Positions 2,646-26,873 of a DNA stretch of 37,385 bases are shown in pieces (positions within the stretch are counted from its first letter, which is position 1; each line of letters opens with the position of its first letter). The notes under the pieces were generated by a model. That model was not told the DNA's origin, searched no databases, and saw only the letters and a program-made list of their open reading frames with translations. The position numbers and the translations under genes were made by a program. The DNA comes from a virus (lineage: Duplodnaviria > Heunggongvirae > Uroviricota > Caudoviricetes), in the IMG/VR virus record IMGVR_UViG_2651869691_000008. One strand, 5' to 3'.

Positions 2646-3755
2646 TCACTCTGTTTCTGCTATCCATTCCGGGATTTTTGCCTCAAGCTCAAGCTGCGTG
2701 GTAAAGCCGCTGTTATCGATGGTGTGCTCGGCTTTTGCAATAATCCAGTCCTGATTATCAATCTCGCTTTTAAATCCTGTTACCGTGCCATGCATTTCGG
2801 GGTAGAGTTCTGCACGACCACATGCCAGCGTGATGGAGAATGATGCGGCTCCGCGTTGTAGCTGCTGCCACTTTGCCGCCGCTGCGCGTCTTGCTGCCTG
2901 CTCGTTCTGATAAGTCTTGCGTAACACAAACACATTGCCTTCCGCGCCTTCCATATAATCACCTTCGCGGCTGCTGCTTTTCTCCTTTTTGGGTTTTGGC
3001 GGTTTGCGGTGTTTCACGCTGACTTTTTTCTTTTTCCCGTAATTAAGATCAAGCCAGTAAGCGCGTACCCCCGTATACGCTTCGCGGTCAGCAATGCGGA
3101 ACTGATGGCGATCGCCACTGCTGCGCGTGATGGCGAACGATGGCAACGGCTGGCCCTGTGCGTTCACGCCACCGCCTGGCATAATGAATAACAGATTACC
3201 GCTTTTTACCGTGGTGATTGCGCCCAGCATTTCCGCCATGCGCGTAAGGAAGGACATGTCGCTTTCTTCGGTCTGGTCGGCGTGGTCGATTTCGATATCC
3301 ATCAGCATTTCGCTGATTTGCGGTTTCAGACCATACCGATGAGCGATGGCGGATACCACACGCTCAACGGTCACATCATGCCAGGACACCTCACGTTTAA
3401 CGTTAAATTCATCCCGAAAATCTGCGCTTCTGGCTGAAACAGTCAGCCTGTCCGGCGGTCCTTCGTGAGCGATTTCATCAACAATGTAAGTGCCTTTTTC
3501 TGTCAGCGGTTCTCCTTTCCAGCCAATGAGAACCGTCAGGCGCGCGCCCCGTGGCGGTAGCTGCAACTGACCATCCGCATCATCCAGCGTGATGGTGAGC
3601 TGGTCCGCGTCAAATCCCCGGTTGTCGGTCAGTGACAGGCTCATCAGGCGCTCTGCCACGCCTGACAGCGTTTTACCCTCCGCGAGAATATCAAAATCCG
3701 GCATTTTCACGGGGTCTGTGCCCTGACTGAGCAATTGCATGGTGGTATCGGTCAT
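2646..3755 (-). CDS. P2 gpD-like tail protein (late control gene D)
   Basis: start refined to ATG at 3755 (GGAGGG RBS 5 nt upstream) within the 2646-3887 ORF; by P2 synteny the gene preceding ogr is D; family call from position and size. Confidence 0.8.
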   Translation of the reverse strand: MTDTTMQLLSQGTDPVKMPDFDILAEGKTLSGVAERLMSLSLTDNRGFDADQLTITLDDADGQLQLPPRGARLTVLIGWKGEPLTEKGTYIVDEIAHEGPPDRLTVSARSADFRDEFNVKREVSWHDVTVERVVSAIAHRYGLKPQISEMLMDIEIDHADQTEESDMSFLTRMAEMLGAITTVKSGNLLFIMPGGGVNAQGQPLPSFAITRSSGDRHQFRIADREAYTGVRAYWLDLNYGKKKKVSVKHRKPPKPKKEKSSSREGDYMEGAEGNVFVLRKTYQNEQAARRAAAAKWQQLQRGAASFSITLACGRAELYPEMHGTVTGFKSEIDNQDWIIAKAEHTIDNSGFTTQLELEAKIPEWIAETE

Positions 3756-3912
3756 CTGTTCCCTCCCTGTGCGGCATGGTCGCATGTGCGTGCGGAGGGG
3801 GTTACTGCTTTTTGTTGTCGCCGGATCGGGAGAACGGCACAGGGGTGAGATTACGCGCGTGGTGGGTGATGATTGTTGCCGAATCATTTAACGGATACAA
3901 GGGGCTAAAGCT

Positions 3913-5097
3913 ATGAGTGAAACTCGTTTTCATGGTGCCCGTGTTACGGAAAATACCGACCTGGTAACAGCGATTAACGATGTTGATTCCAGCGTTATCG
4001 GTATCGTGGCAACGGCGGATGATGCGGACGCGAAGCTGTTCCCGCTGAACAAGCCCACACTGCTGACCCGCGTCAATGACGTGCTGGGAAAATGCGGGAC
4101 AACGGGGACGCTTTATCGTGCGCTTAAGGCCATCGCAGACCAGGTGAGCACAAAGGTGATCGTCGTTCGCGTGGCTGAACACAAAGAAGAAGACGGAAAG
4201 ACGCAGGATCAACTGGTTATCGGTGGTTCTGAATCTGACGGCAGCTATACGGGGATGTATGCGCTGCTTGTTGCAGAGCAGGATGAAAGCATCGGATACC
4301 GTCCGCGTATTCTGGCCGCGCCGGAGCTGGACACGGAGGCGGTGACAAAATCCCTGTGCGTGATTGCGGGTAAACTGCGCGCGTTTGTGTATGCCTCATG
4401 TCACGGCTGTAACACGATGGCTGAGGTGATTACCTACCGCCAGAAATTCAACGAACGTGAGGTGATGCTCTTATGGCCGGACTTCATCGCCTACAACCCG
4501 AAAAGTGGCAAAAACGAAACGTTCCCCGCGCCTGCCTATGCGTGCGGCCTTCGTGCGTACATTGACCATGAGCAGGGATGGCACAAATCACTGTCCAACG
4601 TTCCGGTTAAAAATGTGCTGGGGATGTCCAGGCATGTGTTCTGGTCGTTGCAGGCCGAAGACAGCGATGCCAACAGCCTCAACAACAAAGAAATCACGAC
4701 CATTATTCGTCGCAACGGGTTCCGCTTCTGGGGCAACCGCACACCGGAAACGAACGCCTACATCTTTGAGGTGTATACCCGAACCGCACAGGTGCTGGCT
4801 GATTCAATTGCGGAAGCGCAGTTTGAAACCATCGACAGTCCACTGACGCCTGCGAACGTGAAAGATGTTATCAGTGCCATCAGGGCAAAACTGGATTCAC
4901 TGGTTACTGCCGGGAAACTGATTGGGGCGTCGTGCTGGTATGACGTGGTGGATAACGGCACCACGAATTTACGTCAGGGGCGTGTGCGTATTCGCTACAA
5001 ATATACGCCTGTTCCCCCGCTGGAAGACATGGAGCTTTACCAGTCGTTTACTGATGAATTCTTTGGTCCCGCATTTGCGGTGCTGGGAGGTGTCTGA
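3913..5097 (+). CDS. contractile tail sheath protein (P2 gpFI-like)
   Basis: 394-aa ORF; sheath-like size and position ahead of the tube gene; opposite strand to D/ogr. Confidence 0.85.
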   Translation: MSETRFHGARVTENTDLVTAINDVDSSVIGIVATADDADAKLFPLNKPTLLTRVNDVLGKCGTTGTLYRALKAIADQVSTKVIVVRVAEHKEEDGKTQDQLVIGGSESDGSYTGMYALLVAEQDESIGYRPRILAAPELDTEAVTKSLCVIAGKLRAFVYASCHGCNTMAEVITYRQKFNEREVMLLWPDFIAYNPKSGKNETFPAPAYACGLRAYIDHEQGWHKSLSNVPVKNVLGMSRHVFWSLQAEDSDANSLNNKEITTIIRRNGFRFWGNRTPETNAYIFEVYTRTAQVLADSIAEAQFETIDSPLTPANVKDVISAIRAKLDSLVTAGKLIGASCWYDVVDNGTTNLRQGRVRIRYKYTPVPPLEDMELYQSFTDEFFGPAFAVLGGV

Positions 5098-5609
5098 TGG
5101 CTGTACCAAAACATCTTCGCTTTTTTACGCTGTTTGTGGATGGTGAAAACGAAGTGGGTAAGGTGACGTCCGTCACCCTGCCTAAACTGACGCGCAAAAC
5201 CGACAGCTATCGTGGTGGTGGCATGATGGGGGCGGTAAGTATTGATCTCGGTCTGGACGACTCCGCGCTTGATGCGAGTTTTGTTATGGGGGGAGCTGTT
5301 CGTGCGCTGTTCCTTAAATATGGCGGCACGATTGACGGCACGCTGCTGCGTTTTGCGGGTGAATACTACACCGATGCAGAAAGCGATCTGTATGAAATCG
5401 AGATGCGCGGACGTGTGACGGAAATTGATATGGGGGAAGCCAAACAGGGCGAAGCCACATCACACACTTACGCCATTAAAAACACCTACTACAAGCTGAG
5501 TGTTAACGATCGCCCGTTGTGGGAGATTGACCTGCTGAACTTCATTTACCGGAAGGACGGCAAGGACATTGTGCCCGATCGCATCCGTTCCGCGCTTGGG
5601 CTTGGCTGA
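5097..5609 (+). CDS. tail tube protein (P2 gpFII-like)
   Basis: 170-aa ORF; start overlaps the sheath stop (TGATG). Confidence 0.85.
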   Translation: MAVPKHLRFFTLFVDGENEVGKVTSVTLPKLTRKTDSYRGGGMMGAVSIDLGLDDSALDASFVMGGAVRALFLKYGGTIDGTLLRFAGEYYTDAESDLYEIEMRGRVTEIDMGEAKQGEATSHTYAIKNTYYKLSVNDRPLWEIDLLNFIYRKDGKDIVPDRIRSALGLG

Positions 5610-5663
5610 TAAGTAATATGCAGGCGGCGCAGTGCGTCGCCTCTGACTGAAAGGAGTTTCCTG

Positions 5664-6029
5664 ATGAAAGAGACGAAAAACATCGATACCGAAAACACGG
5701 TCGTTGCTGACACTGTGAAAGAAACCAGTGAGCGTGGCGTAAAACTTACCCAACCAATTGAGCGAGGCGGCGAAAAAATCACGTATGTGGAGATCACCGG
5801 AGCTATTGAGCAGGCTGGATCTCTGCGAGATTTGTCGCTGTCTGATGTGCTGAATCTGAAAGCGGAATCCATGTTTACGCTGCTGTCACGCGTGACATCA
5901 CCGCGACTGGATGAAGTGACGATCAAAAAAATGGCATCCCGTGACTTTATTCAGTTATGTGCGGTTGCCGTAAATTTTTTGAGCGGTGCGGACTCTGGCG
6001 GGAAGAACGAACAGGCGACGGAAGCCTGA
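5664..6029 (+). CDS. tail assembly chaperone (P2 gpE-like)
   Basis: 121-aa acidic ORF immediately upstream of the tape-measure gene. Confidence 0.75.
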   Translation: MKETKNIDTENTVVADTVKETSERGVKLTQPIERGGEKITYVEITGAIEQAGSLRDLSLSDVLNLKAESMFTLLSRVTSPRLDEVTIKKMASRDFIQLCAVAVNFLSGADSGGKNEQATEA

Positions 6030-6193
6030 TCACGATTGTGTGCTTTGAGCACATAGAAGACTTTGTGGCAGATATTGCCGTTATTTTTAACTGGTCGCCC
6101 GCCGAAATCTTCATGATGACGCCCGGCGAAGTGGTTAGCTGGCGTGAGCGGGCGGCACTTCGCAGCGGGAGTGCAGACAATGAAGACTCTTGA
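5664..6193 (+). CDS. gpE+E' fusion chaperone made by programmed -1 frameshift at the T-run 5975-5981
   Basis: slippery TTTTTTG at 5975-5981 in the E frame; the -1 frame continues ...FFERCGLWREERTGDGSLITIVCFEHIEDFVADIAVIFNWSP... to a stop at 6193, overlapping the T start. Confidence 0.6.
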
Positions 6194-8987
6194 TATCCGG
6201 GTCGCTTTCAGCGCCGTTGACAGGCTGACCCGGCCTGCCGAAAACGCCCGCCGCCTGATGGGGCAGTTTGGTGACTCCATCCAGCGAACGCAGGGGGCGA
6301 TCAAAAATCTCGAGCGTCAGGCGCGTTCATTTGAGCGCGCCCGCGACGCTGTCAGTAAAGCGGATGCGGGTATCGTGAAAGCACGACGCCAGCTTAACGC
6401 CCTTAATCAGTTACAACGCACGGGTACAGTGCTCAGCGAAAAACAACAAAAGCTGATGCAGCAGTTAAGCAGCCGGCTTGAACGCCTGAATGAATCGCGC
6501 ACACGGGAAATTCAGAAAATGCGGGAACTTGGCGGAGAGCTGAAACGCCACGGCATTTCCCTGACAGGCAGCGATAACACCATCCAGCAGGCCATCAGAC
6601 GCACCGAACAGTACAACAACCAGCTTGAACGCGAACGGCAGGCGCTTGCGCGTGTAACGCGGGCGCGTGAGCGGTATTCGCGCGCGCAGGAAACCGCGGG
6701 AAAACTGAAAACAGGTGGTGCGCTGGCAATTGGTGCTGCAGCGGCTGGCGGCTATGCTGCCGGGCGTTTTTTGCAGCCTGCGATCGGGTTCGGCAAAGAG
6801 ATGTCCCGCGTTCAGGCACTGACGCGAATCGACAAAAACAGCCCGCAGTTTAAGGCGCTGCGTGAGCAGGCGTTAAAACTTGGTTCTGAAACACAGTTTA
6901 CTGCGAGTGATGCCGCCAGTGGGCAGAGCTTTCTGGCAATGGCTGGTTTTACTCCGCAGGCCATTCAGGCCGCATTGCCCGGTGTTCTTAATATGGCGCT
7001 GGCAGGTGGCGTCGAACTCGGCGAGACGGCTGATATAGGCTCCAATATCCTCACACAGTTCAACCTGACAGCCGATCAAATGGACCGGGTTGGCGATACG
7101 CTGACAGCAGCATTCACCCGGACCAATACTGATTTACGCGCGCTGGGCGAAACCATGAAGTATACCGGTCCGGTTGCCGCAAAACTTGGTATCAGTCTTG
7201 AAGAAGCGGCGGCCATGGCCGGGATGCTTGCCAATAATGGTCTTCGCGGAAGCGATGCTGGTACGGCCATGCGCGCAAGTCTGTCCCGCCTTGCATCACC
7301 GCCAAAAGCTGCGGCTGATGCACTGAAAGAGCAGGGGGTGTCAGTTGCTGACGCCAGAGGCAAAATGCGCCCGATGGAGGATGTGCTGCTTGATCTCTAT
7401 AAGGCGACACAAAAATACGGACAGGTGGACCAGGTCTCCTTCTTCAAGGACATCGCCGGAGAAGAGGCGTTCGTTGGTTTGCAGACGCTTGTTGCGGCGG
7501 CTGGTTCAGGAGAACTGCAAAAACTGACCAGAGAATTGCAGGGGGCAAGGGGAGAGGCCGATCGCGTTGCAAAAGTAATGGCCGATAATCTTGATGGAGA
7601 CCTGAAAAATCTCGACAGCGCATGGGAAGGTCTTCGTATTCGCATCAGTGATCTGGTTGACGGTCCGCTGCGTTCTGTCACGCAGTGGCTCACGCGGGTG
7701 CTTGAAAAAATCACCTCGCTGGCGCAGGCCCATCCGGTACTGACGCGCCAGCTACTGATAGCAAGCGGTGCGTTGCTGGCAATGACTGCAACGATTGGCT
7801 CGTTGTCGCTGGTTATTGGGGTGCTTTACGGGAAGCTGGCCACCTTGCGTCTTGGTTTCGACATTCTTACCCGGTCAATGAATGTCATCAGGGTGTTGCC
7901 TGCGCTGTGGGGAATGGTGACGGGTTCTGTTTCTTTGCTGGGAGGAGCTATCGGGGCGCTGTTCAGTCCGGTTAGTCTTATCGTGGCTGCGCTTGCCGGC
8001 GCTGCCGTTCTTATCTGGAAATACTGGGATCCCATCAGGGCATTTTTTGCCGGGGTGTTCAGCGGGATTATGGAAAGGCTGAACCCGTTGCGTGAAACCT
8101 TTGAACGGTTTGGCCCTGTTTTTGACGCAATCGGAAGCGGGATCAGCCAGGTGTTTAACTGGTTTAAATCGCTGCTGTCACCGATGGAGTCCAGCAAGGA
8201 AACGCTGGATAAATGTACCAGTGCTGGCGAGATATTCGGTAACGTTCTTGGTGGCGCGTTACAGCTTGTTCTGACGCCTGCAAAAATGTTGCTGGATACG
8301 CTGGCGTGGATACTTGAAAAACTCGGTGTTCTTCCGGATGAAGCGGAAAGGGCGAGAAAGAAAATCGAAGACGCACAGCGTGCGGCCATTCTTCAGGACA
8401 AGGTTGCCTTACTTCAAGGGGACCTGGCGAAAATCAATCCGCCGAAGCCTGTGGAAAATGGCAATGGCACCGGAGGTGATAAACCCAAAGACAACAAACC
8501 GCTCACAGACAGCAATACCGGGACGCTACGCAGACTCAGCAAAATTGCTGATAACACAGGTAAGCTGGTTGATGAGACGAAAAAACGCATTGGCCCCGGC
8601 GATATTGTCTTTAAGAACCTGCCCCGCGCACTTGCTGTTCGTGGGGAGTGGCAGGAGCGGAAGATTGCGCAGGTCAGTAAGCCTGCCCCCGCAATTAATA
8701 TCACACCTGTGGTTCCGGCTCCGCTGCCTCCGGCGCTGGTCCCTGTTGTTGCGGCCAGCTCCCGCCCGGTGGCAGAGGCCATACGATCGCCAGTGGCATC
8801 AGTTCCTGCAACTTCCCGTAACCGGGAGACTGTTGCCTCCGGATTTGGCGGTGAAATTCATGTTCATCTGCATAACGTTGTTACGCAGAATCCCCGCGAA
8901 CTGGCGAAACTGGTCGGTGAAATGGTCAGGGCAGAGATGGAACGGCGCGCCCGTGCCGGGCGTGGCAGTTTTTACGATAAAGATTGA
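6180..8987 (+). CDS. tail tape measure protein (P2 gpT-like)
   Basis: long ORF, coiled-coil-rich N-terminus, Ala/Gly-rich hydrophobic middle; ATG at 6180 preferred (GGGAG RBS) over GTG at 6144. Confidence 0.85.
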   Translation: MKTLDIRVAFSAVDRLTRPAENARRLMGQFGDSIQRTQGAIKNLERQARSFERARDAVSKADAGIVKARRQLNALNQLQRTGTVLSEKQQKLMQQLSSRLERLNESRTREIQKMRELGGELKRHGISLTGSDNTIQQAIRRTEQYNNQLERERQALARVTRARERYSRAQETAGKLKTGGALAIGAAAAGGYAAGRFLQPAIGFGKEMSRVQALTRIDKNSPQFKALREQALKLGSETQFTASDAASGQSFLAMAGFTPQAIQAALPGVLNMALAGGVELGETADIGSNILTQFNLTADQMDRVGDTLTAAFTRTNTDLRALGETMKYTGPVAAKLGISLEEAAAMAGMLANNGLRGSDAGTAMRASLSRLASPPKAAADALKEQGVSVADARGKMRPMEDVLLDLYKATQKYGQVDQVSFFKDIAGEEAFVGLQTLVAAAGSGELQKLTRELQGARGEADRVAKVMADNLDGDLKNLDSAWEGLRIRISDLVDGPLRSVTQWLTRVLEKITSLAQAHPVLTRQLLIASGALLAMTATIGSLSLVIGVLYGKLATLRLGFDILTRSMNVIRVLPALWGMVTGSVSLLGGAIGALFSPVSLIVAALAGAAVLIWKYWDPIRAFFAGVFSGIMERLNPLRETFERFGPVFDAIGSGISQVFNWFKSLLSPMESSKETLDKCTSAGEIFGNVLGGALQLVLTPAKMLLDTLAWILEKLGVLPDEAERARKKIEDAQRAAILQDKVALLQGDLAKINPPKPVENGNGTGGDKPKDNKPLTDSNTGTLRRLSKIADNTGKLVDETKKRIGPGDIVFKNLPRALAVRGEWQERKIAQVSKPAPAINITPVVPAPLPPALVPVVAASSRPVAEAIRSPVASVPATSRNRETVASGFGGEIHVHLHNVVTQNPRELAKLVGEMVRAEMERRARAGRGSFYDKD

Positions 8988-8993
8988 GGAGTC

Positions 8994-9488
8994 ATGGCCA
9001 TGATGATGATCTATGGCATGTTTGTTTTTGAGCTGCGCACGTTGCCGCATCAGCAGTTACAGCAAAACAAAAGCTGGCGGCATGTGAAAAATGAACGCGT
9101 TAACCGTTCAGCAAGCTGGCAGTATATCGGGGCAGGCGATGATCGCATCGTTCTTTCTGGTGTGCTTTATCCTGAAATTACAGGTGGCGAAGTGTCGCTT
9201 TCGTTGCTGACCTCGCAGGCATATACAGGACGCCCCTGGCCTCTGATTGATGGTGTCGGGCAGATTTACGGCATGTATGTCCTGACCGGAACGAATACGA
9301 CCCGCTCCGAGTTTGATCGCTACGGTAAGGCGAAAAAGATAGAATTTTCACTGACTCTTGAACGCTGTGATGAGGATTTGCGGGAGCGCCTGCAATCCTC
9401 ATCGTTCAGTGATATGCTGTCCGGCTTCAAAGATAAGGTCACATCATCCCTTAACAGCGCGGCCAGCTCCGTTAAAGGGCTGTTTTGA
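8994..9488 (+). CDS. tail protein (P2 gpU-like)
   Basis: 164-aa ORF directly after the tape measure; GAGGAG RBS. Confidence 0.75.
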   Translation: MAMMMIYGMFVFELRTLPHQQLQQNKSWRHVKNERVNRSASWQYIGAGDDRIVLSGVLYPEITGGEVSLSLLTSQAYTGRPWPLIDGVGQIYGMYVLTGTNTTRSEFDRYGKAKKIEFSLTLERCDEDLRERLQSSSFSDMLSGFKDKVTSSLNSAASSVKGLF

Positions 9489-9492
9489 TTAA

Positions 9493-9525
9493 CGCAAAAC
9501 CGCTAATGGTCAGATTAGCGGTTTT
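9493..9525. terminator. bidirectional hairpin between convergent U and invertase genes
   Basis: AAAACCGCTAAT-GGTCAG-ATTAGCGGTTTT, 10-bp stem flanked by A/T runs. Confidence 0.5.
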
Positions 9526-10114
9526 CATTTTCCTGAGTCTGCCTGGTTGTTTCTTCAGCCTGTATATCGCCTACAGGGTGATAACGATAAATCGTCGATA
9601 TGCCGATGTCGTAAATGATCGCCAGTTGTTTCCTGTCATGACCGTTTTTAATCAGCCTCGCTATTTGCTCGTGTTGTTCTTTTGTCAACTTCGGGCGACG
9701 TCCGCCAATGCGTCCTTGTGCGCGTGCTGCTGCCAGCCCGGCCAGTGTACGCTCTACAATTAATTCACGTTCCATTTCGGCTAAAGCCCCCATGACGTGA
9801 AAAAAGAAACGCCCCATGGGTGTTGATGTGTCAATGCTGTCCGTCAGACTACGGAAATTAACACCTTTTTCCCGCAATTCCTCAATAAGCGTGATCAGGT
9901 GTTTCATACTTCTGCCCAGTCTGTCCAGCTTCCAGACAACCAGCGTATCTCCTTCTGATAGCGTTCTGAGCAGTTTTTTCAATCCCGGTCTGGCTGATTT
10001 CGTTCCGCTGATTTTATCTTCAAAAATCAGTTCACATCCTGCGCAGTTCAGTGCATTGCGTTGTAAATCCGTGTTCTGGTCATTTGTTGACACACGAATA
10101 TAGCCAATTTGCAT
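9515..10114 (-). CDS. serine DNA invertase (Hin/Gin/Cin/Pin family)
   Basis: ATG at 10114 (AAGAGGA RBS) gives MQIGYIRVSTNDQNTDLQRNAL...LVVWKLDRLGRSMKHLI...GRIGGRRPKLT, resolvase catalytic domain plus C-terminal HTH; the longer 9515-10324 ORF is an N-terminal artefact. Confidence 0.9.
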   Translation of the reverse strand: MQIGYIRVSTNDQNTDLQRNALNCAGCELIFEDKISGTKSARPGLKKLLRTLSEGDTLVVWKLDRLGRSMKHLITLIEELREKGVNFRSLTDSIDTSTPMGRFFFHVMGALAEMERELIVERTLAGLAAARAQGRIGGRRPKLTKEQHEQIARLIKNGHDRKQLAIIYDIGISTIYRYHPVGDIQAEETTRQTQENENR

Positions 10115-10168
10115 AAAAAACATCCTCTTTGTTTCGTGAAAAATACATAGTTGGTATAGGTAGGGATA

Positions 10169-10194
10169 AAAACGAAAACGTTGGTTTGGGGGAA
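10169..10194 (+). other. hix/gix-like 26-bp recombination site at start of cassette 1
   Basis: AAAACGAAAACG-TT-GGTTTGGGGGAA; shares the AAAC(C/G)-NN-GGTTT core with sites at 10683, 11200 and (inverted) 12761. Confidence 0.6.
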
Positions 10195-10689
10195 GGTTCT
10201 GCGCTGCCTGTTGGTGTGCCCGTTCCATGGCCCTCAGCCACACCACCAACGGGCTGGCTGAAATGCAATGGTGCAGCATTTTCTTCTGAAATGTATCCCG
10301 GACTGGCAAAAGCCTACCCCGCAAATAAATTACCGGATTTACGGGGAGAATTTATTCGCGGCTGGGATGATGGGCGCGGGGTGGATGCTGGCCGCGCTTT
10401 GCTTAATTGGCAGCCACACACAATTTTGGATCATGCACACTATATGGAATTATGGACCGGGAACGGACTTGCCGTGGAAAGTGCACGGGAAGGATTAAAC
10501 CCTGGAATACTGGCTACATACGGGGACGGGGGAATAGTTAAAACAGACGAACCCGGTTTAAGGGTGCCTTCCTCACTACGAGCCATTAGCTCTCGTAATG
10601 TAAAACGGTTTGGTGAAATTAGTGGAAATGTAGGTACAGAAACTCGCCCTCGCAACGTTGCATTCAATTACATCGTAAGAGCCGCATGA
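10183..10689 (+). CDS. silent (promoterless, startless) tail-fibre C-terminal tip cassette 1
   Basis: in-frame GLGEGSALPVGVPVPWPSATPPTGWLKCNGAAFSSEMYP...RGWDDGR identical to the H junction region, divergent middle, conserved C-terminus ETRPRNVAFNYIVRAA; no in-frame ATG with RBS. Confidence 0.7.
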   Translation, partial: GLGEGSALPVGVPVPWPSATPPTGWLKCNGAAFSSEMYPGLAKAYPANKLPDLRGEFIRGWDDGRGVDAGRALLNWQPHTILDHAHYMELWTGNGLAVESAREGLNPGILATYGDGGIVKTDEPGLRVPSSLRAISSRNVKRFGEISGNVGTETRPRNVAFNYIVRAA

Positions 10690-10708
10690 AAACGTTGGTT
10701 TGGGGGAA
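10683..10708 (+). other. hix/gix-like recombination site at start of cassette 2
   Basis: CGCATGAAAACG-TT-GGTTTGGGGGAA; overlaps the cassette-1 stop codon. Confidence 0.6.
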
Positions 10709-11206
10709 GGTTCTGCGCTGCCTGTTGGTGTGCCCGTTCCGTGGCCCTCAGCAACACCACCAACGGGCTGGCTGAAATGTAACGGCGCAGCATTTTCTTC
10801 TGAAATGTATCCCGGACTGGCAAAGGCTTACCCCACCAATAAATTACCGGATTTACGGGGTGAATTTATTCGTGGCTGGGATGATGGACGTAGTGCGGAT
10901 GCGGGGAGAACAATATTATCCGCTCAAGGTGATGCCATACGTAATATCTATGGTGAGTTCAAGACTGTAAACACTGAAAATTATTCAATATGGGAATCAG
11001 TAGGCTCGTTTAAGGGGGCAGTGGTGCCTTTAAATTCCTCAACAAACAATAGTTATTTCTCCTTAGTCAGAAGTATGGTGACAGAAAGGACAGACGGCGC
11101 TGTTTACCCAAAAGTGATTGGCCTTGATGCTTCAAAAATTGTTCCAACTGCAAACGAAAACCGCCCACGCAACATTGCGTTTAATTACATCGTAAGGGCA
11201 GCATGA
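10697..11206 (+). CDS. silent tail-fibre C-terminal tip cassette 2
   Basis: same conserved N-linker and C-terminal RPRNIAFNYIVRAA, distinct central region. Confidence 0.7.
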   Translation, partial: GLGEGSALPVGVPVPWPSATPPTGWLKCNGAAFSSEMYPGLAKAYPTNKLPDLRGEFIRGWDDGRSADAGRTILSAQGDAIRNIYGEFKTVNTENYSIWESVGSFKGAVVPLNSSTNNSYFSLVRSMVTERTDGAVYPKVIGLDASKIVPTANENRPRNIAFNYIVRAA

Positions 11207-11225
11207 AAACGTTGGTTTGGGGGAA
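11200..11225 (+). other. hix/gix-like recombination site at start of cassette 3
   Basis: AGCATGAAAACG-TT-GGTTTGGGGGAA. Confidence 0.6.
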
Positions 11226-11693
11226 GGCTCTGCACTGCCCGTTGGTGTGCCTGTTCCATGGCCCTCAGCCACACCACCAACGGGCTGGCTGAAATGTAAC
11301 GGTGCAGCATTTTCTTCTGAAATGTATCCCGGACTGGCAAAGGCTTACCCCACAAATAAATTACCGGATTTACGCGGAGAATTTATCCGTGGCTGGGATG
11401 ATGGGCGAGGAATTGATGCGGCACGCGCTTTATTGAGCATTCAAAACGGGATGTTGGAAAAACACCGCCATATTGTTGTAGCTAACGATGGATATGACAC
11501 AAAAGATGAATGGGAGTTGGCTACGATTTTCAAAAAAACATATACACAAGGCAGGGGACTTGATGCCACAAATACAGGAGGGAGTTTGATTCCATCACCA
11601 ACGCTTCATTCACGAGGAAGTATTGGTAACACAGGTGGTAGTGAAACCCGCCCCCGCAATATTGCATTTAACTATATCGTGAGGGCGGCTTAG
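11214..11693 (+). CDS. silent tail-fibre C-terminal tip cassette 3
   Basis: same conserved N-linker and C-terminal RPRNIAFNYIVRAA, distinct central region. Confidence 0.7.
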   Translation, partial: GLGEGSALPVGVPVPWPSATPPTGWLKCNGAAFSSEMYPGLAKAYPTNKLPDLRGEFIRGWDDGRGIDAARALLSIQNGMLEKHRHIVVANDGYDTKDEWELATIFKKTYTQGRGLDATNTGGSLIPSPTLHSRGSIGNTGGSETRPRNIAFNYIVRAA

Positions 11694-11699
11694 TTATAT

Positions 11700-12311
11700 T
11701 CAACTGGCTGATGCCAGTGGTATTTCCGGCAAGTTGATATCTGGTGCCATGTTTATATCCATTGCGTTCAGCGCGTCTATATAATCCAGCACGGCATTAA
11801 GCCGGGTGGTTTCTGCCTGCGTCAACTTCCGCCCGGCCCGCAACTTCAACTGAATCAGACTTATGGAATCCATTGCCGCATCAGCCAGTGACTGGCGCTT
11901 GGTTTCTGCCGCTTCTACTGCGGCACGATGTTGTACCTCAGTATCTGTCACCCATTTTTCACCATCCCATTTATCGTATGGTGTTAACGGGGCGATAGTG
12001 GTTGTATTTTTCGGGTAGTCACCCAGCGCCGTGATTTCTTCGGTGTTTCCCGTGTCAGTGCTATAGACGGTTTCACCACGATGGTCTGGCGCATACTCCC
12101 ATGAATTTAAATCCTCCGAACGGCGAATAGCATAGCCAGATTTATGTGCGCCTGGGGCATCTAAACAGGAATTAGCCGGAATACCAACACCCACAGCAAG
12201 ATATTCAGTTGATTCGGAAATATATTCCCGTGTCTCACCATCATAGTTATAAACGACGATGTTTCCTGCCTGTACGGCAATAAGGTCATCATTTAATATC
12301 GCGTTATTCAT
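11700..12311 (-). CDS. tail fibre assembly protein (P2 gpG / Tfa-like chaperone)
   Basis: 203-aa ORF immediately after H (start overlaps H stop, TAATG); Tfa-like position and size. Confidence 0.8.
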   Translation of the reverse strand: MNNAILNDDLIAVQAGNIVVYNYDGETREYISESTEYLAVGVGIPANSCLDAPGAHKSGYAIRRSEDLNSWEYAPDHRGETVYSTDTGNTEEITALGDYPKNTTTIAPLTPYDKWDGEKWVTDTEVQHRAAVEAAETKRQSLADAAMDSISLIQLKLRAGRKLTQAETTRLNAVLDYIDALNAMDINMAPDINLPEIPLASAS

Positions 12312-13906
12312 TATGCGGTTCTCACAATATAATTGAAGGCAATATTGCGTGGGCGGGCTTCATTCCCCCCTGAGGATTCCGTTCTGTATTGACTGGTAAA
12401 TCTACCGTTAATTGCACCTTGCCGGACGGCGTTATCTGTCGACAACAGACTATCCCCTCCTTTGTCATTTGGCACCAGTACCGTGTTATCCCACGCGTCC
12501 CATGACCGAATATTATGATAATGACTTCCTGTTAACCACCCCTGCATGCTTAAGATGCCCCTTCCGGCATCCACCCCGCGCCCATCATCCCAGCCACGGA
12601 TAAATTCACCGCGTAAGTCTGGTAATTTATTGGTGGGGTAAGCCATTGCCAGTCTGGGATACATTTCAGAAGAAAATGCTGCGCCGTTACATTTCAGCCA
12701 GCCCGTTGGTGGTGTTGCTGAGGGCCACGGAACGGGCACACCAACGGGCAGTGCAGAACCTTCTCCTAAACCAAGGTAATCAAGAACGCCCTGAGTGCTG
12801 GTTTTACCAAGAATGGCACGTCCAACACTTGTCAACGCGGTTAACGCGGCACGATCTGCCCCTGTAAAATATGGGAGTTTATCTGCTGATGTAGCAAGCT
12901 TCGCCAGCGCCGTCAGGATGGCATCCTTCGGTTGCTTACCCGCAAGCGCGTTAGTCATGGTGGTCGCAAAATTCGGGTCATTGCCCAGCGCCGCAGCCAG
13001 TTCGTTCAGCGTGTTCAGTGCATCAGGTGACGAATCTACAAGTGCGGCAATCGCGGCCATAACGAAAGCTGTGCTTGCGATCTGGGTATTATTAGTCCCC
13101 TGTGGCGCTGTTGGTGTTGTTGGCGTTCCGGTCAGTGCCGGGCTGTTTAATGGTGCTTTCTTGTTCGTTTCATCCATTACCACCTTAACAGCTTTTGGTG
13201 TCGCTGCCAGCGTTTCAGACGTGCTGTTCGTGGCGCTACTGAGCTGAACAATCCCTTTTTGTGTAGTGGTGGCGTTCTGGGCGGTATATTTCCCGTTAGC
13301 CAGGTCATATGCAGCCTTAACCGCTTTCGGTGTTGCGGCCAGTGTTTCTGATTCACTGTTAATTGCACTGCTTAACTGAGTAAAACCTTTTACGGTCAGC
13401 GAGGCGTCCGGGTGACGTCGTGATTGTTCGTGCTCTGATATTTTATCATCCACATATTTGCGGGTTGCCAGAACCACAGACGGGTCGATTTTCAGCGTGA
13501 TGGCTTCGGTGTTCGTGACAACCAGAATCATGCGGATAGTCTGGGTGCGTCCACTGCCTTCCTGCAACTGCGGTTTGTACGTTTCCGGGCAGTTTGCCAC
13601 CGCAATGAGTACACCTTCATCATCATAAAGACCAATCTCACGGATCCAGAATCCTCCCTCGTTTTCAGGGATGATTTGCTCCGCAATAATCTGGCTCTGA
13701 TTGTTAGGGTCAACACTCAGAAGATTCAGCGGTGCAATGCGTTTCTGGTTAATCAGTTTTGTTTGTGCAGGGTCTGGTGTTGGTAACACACCATTTGCAT
13801 CACCAACGGCCATTTGCGTCAGATTCAGCTTACTGCCGAGCATCGTCGCGTTAGCCAGTCGTGCCGCGCCCTGATTAGTCAGAATGGCGTAGTATTTCAC
13901 TGTCAT
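12311..13906 (-). CDS. tail fibre protein (P2 gpH-like), currently fused to variable tip 0
   Basis: N-terminal two-thirds P2 H-like (AEHEQSRRHPDASLT, repeated QLSSA..S.SETLAATPKAVK, ALGNDPNFATTMTNALAGKQPKD); after ...DYLGL the sequence matches the cassette linker, then a unique tip ending EARPRNIAFNYIVRTA. Confidence 0.9.
   Translation of the reverse strand: MTVKYYAILTNQGAARLANATMLGSKLNLTQMAVGDANGVLPTPDPAQTKLINQKRIAPLNLLSVDPNNQSQIIAEQIIPENEGGFWIREIGLYDDEGVLIAVANCPETYKPQLQEGSGRTQTIRMILVVTNTEAITLKIDPSVVLATRKYVDDKISEHEQSRRHPDASLTVKGFTQLSSAINSESETLAATPKAVKAAYDLANGKYTAQNATTTQKGIVQLSSATNSTSETLAATPKAVKVVMDETNKKAPLNSPALTGTPTTPTAPQGTNNTQIASTAFVMAAIAALVDSSPDALNTLNELAAALGNDPNFATTMTNALAGKQPKDAILTALAKLATSADKLPYFTGADRAALTALTSVGRAILGKTSTQGVLDYLGLGEGSALPVGVPVPWPSATPPTGWLKCNGAAFSSEMYPRLAMAYPTNKLPDLRGEFIRGWDDGRGVDAGRGILSMQGWLTGSHYHNIRSWDAWDNTVLVPNDKGGDSLLSTDNAVRQGAINGRFTSQYRTESSGGNEARPRNIAFNYIVRTA
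12761..12786 (-). other. hix/gix-like recombination site inside H at the constant/variable junction
   Basis: minus strand reads TTCTTGATTACC-TT-GGTTTAGGAGAA, inverted relative to the three cassette sites. Confidence 0.6.
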
Positions 13907-26229: not shown

Positions 26230-26544
26230 TCACTCTCCTTTGATGTCAATGTTTACAGCTTGGCAAGCCTCTTTGAGCACCCAGTCAACAGCGTCTTTCC
26301 ATGCTCCGGTTTCGGTTGGCGGATTCTCACGTTTTACCAGTTCATAGAAACGTACTGCTCTAACCAGTCCATCTGACGGTTTTGCCTGTAGTACAGCCTG
26401 AGCTATACGGTATGCCTGGAGCATACGGGCGTCGTTGATATCCATTCCGAACGGAATTTCTGATGATCGTGATTCTGCATCTTCAAGCCTGGCAATTTCT
26501 TTACGTAAAAAGTATTTCAACTCTTGTTTTTGTTTTCTGTTCAT
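26230..26544 (-). CDS. hypothetical protein (cargo operon gene 2)
   Basis: 104-aa ORF; start ATG overlaps the upstream stop (ATGA). Confidence 0.55.
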
Positions 26545-26873
26545 GTGTTTTTTCCCTTTTTGTCTGCCACTTCTCTCCTGATAATTTCATTGCACAAATC
26601 CACGCACTCATTGCAGATGTAAACAGACGGTCCAGCAATCACCTTTGTGACTTCGTACTGGGATTTATTGCAGAAGCTGCAATAAATCGTTTCCTCGCCT
26701 GAAGTCCATGTTTTGCTGGTTTCGCCAGACATCAGTTGTTTGAGGTCTTTTTCACGACGAAGAACTATCTGGCCACATTCAGCTATTTTTTGGATGTTGA
26801 CATTTTCTTCTTTCGCCAGCGCTTCCATCCGCTCAATCAGTCGCTGCGCTTTTTCTCTGTCAATGTGTTGCAT
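26541..26873 (-). CDS. ClpX N-terminal zinc-binding-domain-like protein (stand-alone ZBD with N-terminal helical extension)
   Basis: C-terminal ...[41 protein letters not shown] closely matches the ClpX N-domain ([37 protein letters not shown] as I recall it); no AAA+ module. Confidence 0.7.

Follow-up and report, generated by a model that had tools for sequence, protein, structure and literature searches.

The window analysed here, a stretch of 37,385 nucleotides held as IMG/VR record IMGVR_UViG_2651869691_000008, is an almost complete prophage that adjoins a host gene for a CDP-alcohol phosphatidyltransferase. The region spanning the tube gene, gene E, and gene T is 100% identical to the corresponding sequence of E. 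coli AR_0013 and 98% identical to that of phage P88. The element is a P88-like prophage (Xuanwuvirus, Peduoviridae), and about a quarter of complete E. coli genomes (1375 of 5426) carry a relative of it.

Pfam identities define the gene order as sheath-tube-E-E'-T-U. The sheath gene (3913-5097) is followed by an FII-like tail tube gene (5097-5609, plus strand), the upstream neighbour of gene E, which matches PF04985 (Phage_tube) at 2.1e-46. Gene E (5664-6029, plus strand) is preceded by AAAGGAG and encodes the 121-aa product of the 0 frame, a putative tail assembly chaperone. Gene T, the tape measure gene (6180-8987, plus strand), matches PF10145 (PhageMin_Tail) at 4.4e-55, carries GGGAG 8 nt upstream of its start, and has position 6180 as its RefSeq start as well. 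Gene U (8994-9488) encodes gpU (PF06995). The E/E' pair lies between the tube gene (FII) and the tape measure gene (T), which is the placement that characterizes a P2-type chaperone pair, and both members occupy the exact place of the tail assembly chaperone pair in long-tailed phages.

The tail operon is rearranged in this genus. A gpD-like baseplate hub gene, also assigned by Pfam, is found at 2646-3887 on the minus strand, upstream of the sheath gene (FI) and divergent from it, whereas gene D closes the F-E-T-U-D operon in P2. On the other side of gene U, a serine invertase gene (Resolvase and HTH_7 domains; 9515-10324, minus strand) lies beside three tandem cassettes of approximately 515 bp. 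These cassettes form a repeat family (10125-11421) whose members are 80-90% alike, and each encodes a tail-fibre 'Collar' C-terminus on the plus strand. The cassette ends repeat, in inverted orientation, the sequence 12312-12372, which lies at the 3' end of tail-fibre gene H (12311-13906, minus strand). The invertase and cassette region as a whole (9515-12372 of the window) looks like a multi-cassette invertible host-range switch.

Within gene E, a TTTTTTG heptamer is located at 5975-5981 on the plus strand, where the first-pass annotation had placed a slippery site in the E frame. Counted from the ATG at 5664, the 0-frame codons across the site are AAT (5973-5975), TTT (5976-5978), and TTG (5979-5981). 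The offset, (5975-5664) mod 3 = 2, means that the heptamer is read as T TTT TTG and conforms to the canonical X XXY YYZ pattern. In the -1 frame, the final upstream stop is a TGA at 5942-5944, after which the frame is open from 5945 to a TGA at 6191-6193. Since gene E itself terminates at 6027-6029, E' can be reached by a -1 shift only within the 85-nt overlap at 5945-6029. The first codon after the shift is GAG at 5981, and the E' extension (5981-6193, plus strand) comprises 70 codons plus the TGA, giving a predicted E+E' product of 176 aa and approximately 19 kDa. The 3' end of E' and the tape-measure ATG at 6180 overlap by 14 nt, and the earlier description of a -1 frame open to 6193 and running into the start of the tape measure gene was accurate. 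Indeed, every element of that description is correct. It did not mention, however, that T TTT TTG is overlapped by another heptamer in phase with E, A AAT TTT (5972-5978, plus strand). Under a strict X XXY YYZ definition, by which AAAAATG and AAAAATC do not qualify and were disregarded, these two are the only such motifs across the whole E reading frame.

The presence of a heptamer by itself carries little information. The window holds 24 copies of TTTTTTG on both strands, against 11.7 expected. In-phase XXXYYYZ motifs occur at a background rate of approximately 0.4% of codons (43 in 10671 codons, counted in the ORF set of the window without E itself, with a spurious antisense ORF kept in its place), which corresponds to approximately 0.11 expected per 28-codon E/E' overlap. 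The site stands out from chance through its phase and its location, through the homologues of its -1 product, and through its conservation among relatives. One further frameshift candidate in the window, A AAG GGA AAA AAC at 26553-26559 on the minus strand, was rejected as being only a ribosome-binding site plus an ATGA start/stop overlap. This motif lies at the 3' end of an ORF for a ClpX-type zinc-finger protein (26541-26873), and the next ORF (26230-26544) follows in the -1 frame of the minus strand.

Both parts of the predicted fusion are homologous to P2 proteins. The E' extension matches PF06528 (Phage_P2_GpE) with 47.3 bits against a cut-off of 23 (E 1.5e-12), covering all 37 profile positions, and the domain corresponds to residues 29-64 of the extension (6065-6172, plus strand). 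A broader match to phrog_1756 (3.1e-38) spans residues 1-68 and accordingly begins at the first post-shift residue. The 0-frame product matches phrog_103, labelled 'tail protein', at 3.4e-35, while its match to PF10109 (Phage_TAC_7) is weak (0.0058, 17.1 bits, under the cut-off of 25). Profile-profile comparison by hhalign relates a Xuanwu-group E profile to a P2-group gpE profile built from P2, Fels-2, Yersinia, RSA1, Smp131, and Milagro sequences, with a probability of 99.3% (E 1.4e-20, 85 columns). The final residues of each profile are the 'xFL' whose codons make up the heptamer, and the slip sites of the window and of P2 share one alignment column. When the same construction is applied to P2, it yields an E of 91 aa and an E+E' of 142 aa, which are the published sizes (PMC3091744). 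A search of NCBIfam gave no match, and a PDB sequence search with the fusion profile returned nothing at E<=1. A single-sequence AlphaFold2 model of the fusion (pLDDT 47, pTM 0.38) was unusable.

The P2 system serves as the closest reference. According to Christie (2002) and Xu (2004), as cited in PMC3091744, P2 shifts by -1 at TTTTTTG to extend gpE into gpE+E'; the gpE/gpE+E' frameshift of Christie et al. 2002 (J Bacteriol 184:6522) is likewise cited in PMC5009743. The window shares with P2 an identical T TTT TTG heptamer in the same phase and in a homologous column at the end of the E 'xFL' motif, the position of E between FII and T, an E' end that overlaps the start of T, and the lack of a downstream hairpin. 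Several differences are also evident. The window E is longer (121 versus 91 aa) and carries an N-terminal extension. Its E+E' product measures 176 rather than 142 aa and includes a 14-residue insertion (the CGLWREERTGDGSL region) after the shift site. Moreover, the E/E' overlap covers 85 nt in place of 37 nt and contains the additional overlapping heptamer A AAT TTT.

The lambda gpG/gpGT pair provides a second point of comparison. As in the window, lambda has two overlapping ORFs between the major tail or tube gene and the tape measure gene. Its slippery sequence is G GGA AAG and differs from that of the window, whose phage, unlike lambda, is a contractile-tailed myovirus. The families of lambda G and T gave no match in a Pfam scan of E, E', and their surroundings, in which only P2-type families were found; lambda and the window thus share no sequence family in that scan. 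By its sequence, the site would work like lambda G/GT and yet is not a member of the gpG/gpGT sequence family. The conserved tail chaperone frameshift represented by lambda was described by Levin (1993) and by Xu, Hendrix & Duda (2004, 2013, 2014), as summarised in PMC5009743.

Conservation in relatives had been named in the first-pass annotation as a point on which the proposal could fail, and the slippery site proved to be conserved. In tblastn searches of phage genomes with the fusion sequence, E and E' are recovered as two pieces in different frames down to approximately 33% identity, with two-piece matches in Klebsiella, Enterobacter, Yersinia, Ralstonia, Vibrio, and Mannheimia phages. 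An in-phase T TTT TT(G/C/T) is present in the overlap of 11 of 13 named phages. In other Peduoviridae, namely Smp131 of Stenotrophomonas, the Burkholderia phages Milagro, KS5, KS14, and KL3, and Fels-2 of Salmonella, an in-phase T TTT TTG or T TTT TTT occupies the overlap, and the fusions are only 31-35% identical to that of the window. The E/E' fusion is already annotated as a two-piece coding sequence in Smp131 and Milagro, and as a note in Fels-2. A wider sample was drawn from one-genome-per-species bacterial assemblies with a search alignment of four sequences. Among the resulting 79 loci from other species, 74 hold an in-phase T TTT TTN in the E/E' overlap, and 10 of the loci combine it with C CCT TTT. 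At close range, all 80 of 80 IMG/VR relatives keep AAATTTTTTG; that scan of viral contigs with E returned only 98-100% identical loci, and its result describes invariance within the P88 type and not diversity.

The five loci without a qualifying T TTT TTN fall into different situations. In one of them (L165), the heptamer is present and E is broken. Two loci (L115 and L116, from Klebsiella spallanzanii / michiganensis) have a T run interrupted at approximately position 1128 of the locus, reading CCCTTTCTTG, and their sole in-phase heptamer is C CCT TTC, which is reported to be highly shifty in E. coli. Judged from these sequences, the Klebsiella loci appear to be an independent parallel to the lineage of P884B11 and PhiSM, which holds A AAT TTT only. 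The two remaining loci come from Symbiopectobacterium metagenome-assembled genomes. In L099 (868-1380), E and E' form one continuous frame, a hard-wired fusion reading ...LTPFLAPGGAWRIERGGDG..., while L100 (853-1464) contains additional frame disruptions; this state could reflect prophage decay in an insect symbiont or a homopolymer assembly error. Among the named phages, Mannheimia phage PHL101 (1006-1015 of its locus, L011) has no T run and carries G GGA AAG / A AAG GGC in the overlap. By this comparison, the same recoding event makes use there of another slippery sequence, which resembles that of lambda and is placed nearer to the C-terminus. The T TTT TTN exceptions in P884B11/PhiSM (A AAT TTT), the two Klebsiella loci (C CCT TTC), and PHL101 (G GGA AAG) keep another in-phase heptamer.

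The pattern of substitution provides evidence of a different kind. Codon differences between the window and the 91%-identical P884B11 lineage were counted without gaps as synonymous or nonsynonymous in both frames. Before the heptamer (5945-5974), frame 0 shows five synonymous and no nonsynonymous differences, and frame -1 shows none and six, respectively. Past the heptamer and ahead of the annotated GTG (5982-6037), the ratio becomes 2/8 in frame 0 and 7/5 in frame -1. The same contrast over wider intervals gave Fisher p values of 0.015 and 0.001. Protein-level constraint, as far as it can be read from substitutions, acts on frame 0 up to the heptamer and on frame -1 from there on. Such a switch is predicted by a fusion product and not by an independent E' gene.

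These counts bear directly on whether E' is a small gene of its own, translated from the GTG at 6038 (51 aa) or the ATG at 5957 (78 aa) without any frameshift. Both ORFs are called in RefSeq and GenBank as 'GpE family phage tail protein' on hundreds of contigs, and position 5957 is occupied by ATG or GTG in both lineages. Against this explanation, the segment 5982-6037 ahead of the GTG evolves as -1-frame coding sequence, whereas the -1 codons around the ATG at 5957 (5945-5974) do not. Neither candidate start has a Shine-Dalgarno sequence, in contrast to E (AAAGGAG) and T (GGGAG), and the GTG is sequestered in a conserved 9-bp hairpin. Across the family, the starts at 5957 and 6038 are not conserved; P2 has just three open -1 codons before its heptamer and no start among them. 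The conservation captured by phrog_1756 also starts at the first post-shift residue and not at either start codon. We consider an independent E' gene very unlikely. The extension at 5981-6193 is defined by translation, the phrog_1756 match, and the substitution pattern, which favours frame -1 from 5982 onwards.

A change of frame at the level of transcription was also weighed. RNA polymerase slippage on the T6 run would leave some transcripts with one U fewer. The run at the site is indeed homopolymeric, and trans-frame products are known to arise by slippage during transcription (PMC5009743). However, the run has only 6 T, and the bacterial slippage described in PMC5009743 involves approximately 9 consecutive A or T. 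In the P884B11 lineage the run is no longer than T4 (AAATTTTATG), and in the Klebsiella loci the sequence is CCCTTTCTTG; both follow the ribosomal X XXY YYZ rules and not those of polymerase slippage. In addition, the motif is strictly held in codon phase, for which transcriptional slippage has no need. Polymerase slippage is thus so improbable that it hardly competes with ribosomal frameshifting.

No stimulatory element was detected around the slip site. Folding of the downstream sequence was no better than controls, with z = +0.39 for 5982-6030 (49 nt) and z = -0.37 for 5982-6070 (89 nt) relative to shuffles, and a scan of 5600-6400 against Rfam returned no family at E<=1. No Shine-Dalgarno-like (AGGAGG-like) stimulator was found upstream of the slip site. 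The site accordingly lacks what defines stimulated -1 frameshifting of the dnaX / IS3 type, namely a hairpin or pseudoknot 5-9 nt after the heptamer, or an SD-like element. The P884B11 type folds somewhat better downstream (z -1.41), although not significantly, and its hairpin is not conserved in the window. The only conserved hairpin is a 9-bp stem at 6036-6054 (UGUGUGCUUUGAGCACAUA), which lies 55 nt past the slip site, too distant for a classical stimulator. It is situated in the E' coding region, encloses the GTG at 6038, and is conserved in the P884B11 type. Downstream structure is likewise reported to be absent in P2 and in the P2-like phages of Burkholderia (BCC) (PMC3091744).

Taken together, we assign a probability of about 0.9 to a programmed -1 frameshift of the P2 E/E+E' type in the window, a reading drawn from sequence and comparison. 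It is built on features observed there: the site, its phase, the open frame, the homology of both parts to P2, the conservation, and the switch in constraint. The first-pass interpretation, a tail chaperone frameshift as in P2-like phages, is therefore supported by gene order, by the homology of E and E', by conservation, and by the substitution switch. In this model, most ribosomes on gene E would terminate at 6027-6029 and release the 121-aa chaperone E. A minority would slip back by 1 nt on A AAT TTT TTG (5972-5981) and continue in the -1 frame as far as the TGA at 6191-6193, producing the 176-aa E+E' with 70 C-terminal residues that contain the P2 E' domain. The slippery sequence alone would determine the shift.

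The function proposed for the two products follows the tail chaperone model for P2 and lambda, which is summarised in PMC5009743; the same source reports that frameshift efficiency in the P2 type is 2-3 fold above that of lambda. If the pair acts like its counterparts in P2 (E/E+E') and lambda (G/GT), the E part common to both products would bind the tape measure protein, and the E' part would recruit the tail tube protein and start its polymerisation. Tail assembly would then require a fixed E : E+E' ratio, and both E and E+E' would be expected outside the virion. Slippage in vivo, its efficiency, the heptamer used, and the chaperone function are inferred.

Among the rival explanations, only the one that concerns the choice of heptamer is a real competitor. 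The genus is dimorphic at this point. The window and the P88 type read AAATTTTTTG at 5972-5981 and hold both overlapping heptamers, whereas P884B11 (1015-1024 of locus L004) and Citrobacter phage PhiSM (2386-2395 of locus L003) read AAATTTTATG and hold A AAT TTT only. Their codons are GTA AAT TTT ATG, and T TTT TTG has been lost while A AAT TTT was kept. Probing of 5426 complete E. coli genomes with 44-nt allele probes found the window type in approximately 818 genomes and the ATG type in approximately 598 (536 of them exact matches). Approximately 58% of E. coli prophage copies thus carry both heptamers and approximately 42% carry A AAU UUU only (TTG>ATG). Slippage in the window could take place on one heptamer or the other, or on the two in succession. 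The predicted products are equally long, and residue 106 (Leu or Phe) is the sole difference between them. The corresponding tryptic junction peptides are predicted to be DFIQLCAVAVNFLER for a slip on U UUU UUG and DFIQLCAVAVNFFER (+33.98 Da) for a slip on A AAU UUU.

Ribosomes may slip on the upstream A AAT TTT (5972-5978), either exclusively or in addition to T TTT TTG. In such a case, tRNA-Asn would occupy the P site and tRNA-Phe the A site, and Phe would replace Leu at residue 106. A AAT TTT is the only heptamer common to both Xuanwuvirus lineages, and the ATG type is present in approximately 598 complete E. coli genomes, against approximately 818 for the window type. PhiSM, which has A AAT TTT only, is a plaque-forming and lysogenising phage (PMC6456863). 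If E+E' is essential in PhiSM as reported for P2, it must be made there on A AAU UUU. Assays in E. coli place H_HH.U_UU.Y heptamers, the class to which A AAT TTT belongs, among the most efficient, and the A-site tetramer U_UU.U ranks well above U_UU.G, which reached only 1.8-3.6x background in E. coli reporters (PMC4066793). The two Klebsiella loci with C CCT TTC only and the 10 loci that pair C CCT TTT with T TTT TTN are further points in favour of an upstream site. Conversely, P2 lacks an upstream heptamer and shifts at TTTTTTG, and no other motif comes close to T TTT TTN in its conservation between species (74 of 79 loci). On balance, slippage on A AAT TTT is a serious candidate, which we nonetheless place somewhat short of even odds.

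A related proposal treats the shift signal as a compound decamer, A AAU UUU UUG, that offers two successive chances to slip. With the genus dimorphic, the E : E+E' ratio would then differ between lineages, or the shift would really take place on A AAU UUU, with U UUU UUG as a bystander. We advance this idea tentatively and consider it possible but rather doubtful.

The fusion is missing from current annotation. Genus records in RefSeq and GenBank describe E as a 'tail protein' and E' as a separate ORF of 51 aa (from the GTG at 6038) or 78 aa (from the ATG at 5957). A slippage join was found in none of the Xuanwuvirus RefSeq/GenBank records examined, as anticipated by the first-pass remark that standard ORF callers would miss the fusion product. 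Neither version of the fusion sequence is contained in a collection of 15 billion proteins, and the P88 paper does not mention a frameshift. Product names in the surrounding region deserve attention in their own right. The P88 record (KP063541) names the E' ORF 'tail fiber protein'. In OR565851 (Citrobacter phage Shae_phiSM), the coding sequence in the sheath position is labelled 'late control gene D protein', the one in the gpD position is labelled 'ogr/Delta-like zinc finger', and E' is unannotated. The product names in both records look displaced.

The E/E+E' site of this prophage is an ordinary and expected recoding event of an established type, here unannotated in a common E. coli prophage. 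Its main value lies in annotation, as existing records divide what is an essential tail-assembly protein between two entries, a 'tail protein' and a spurious 'GpE family' ORF, and annotation of a ribosomal-slippage join would correct thousands of records. It also adds one more lineage to a well-established recoding event. Beyond annotation, the dimorphism of the slip site offers a small lead on how tightly the E : E+E' ratio is constrained. If the compound decamer and the dimorphic genus hold true, this prophage family would constitute a natural experiment on the variation in chaperone ratio that tail assembly tolerates.
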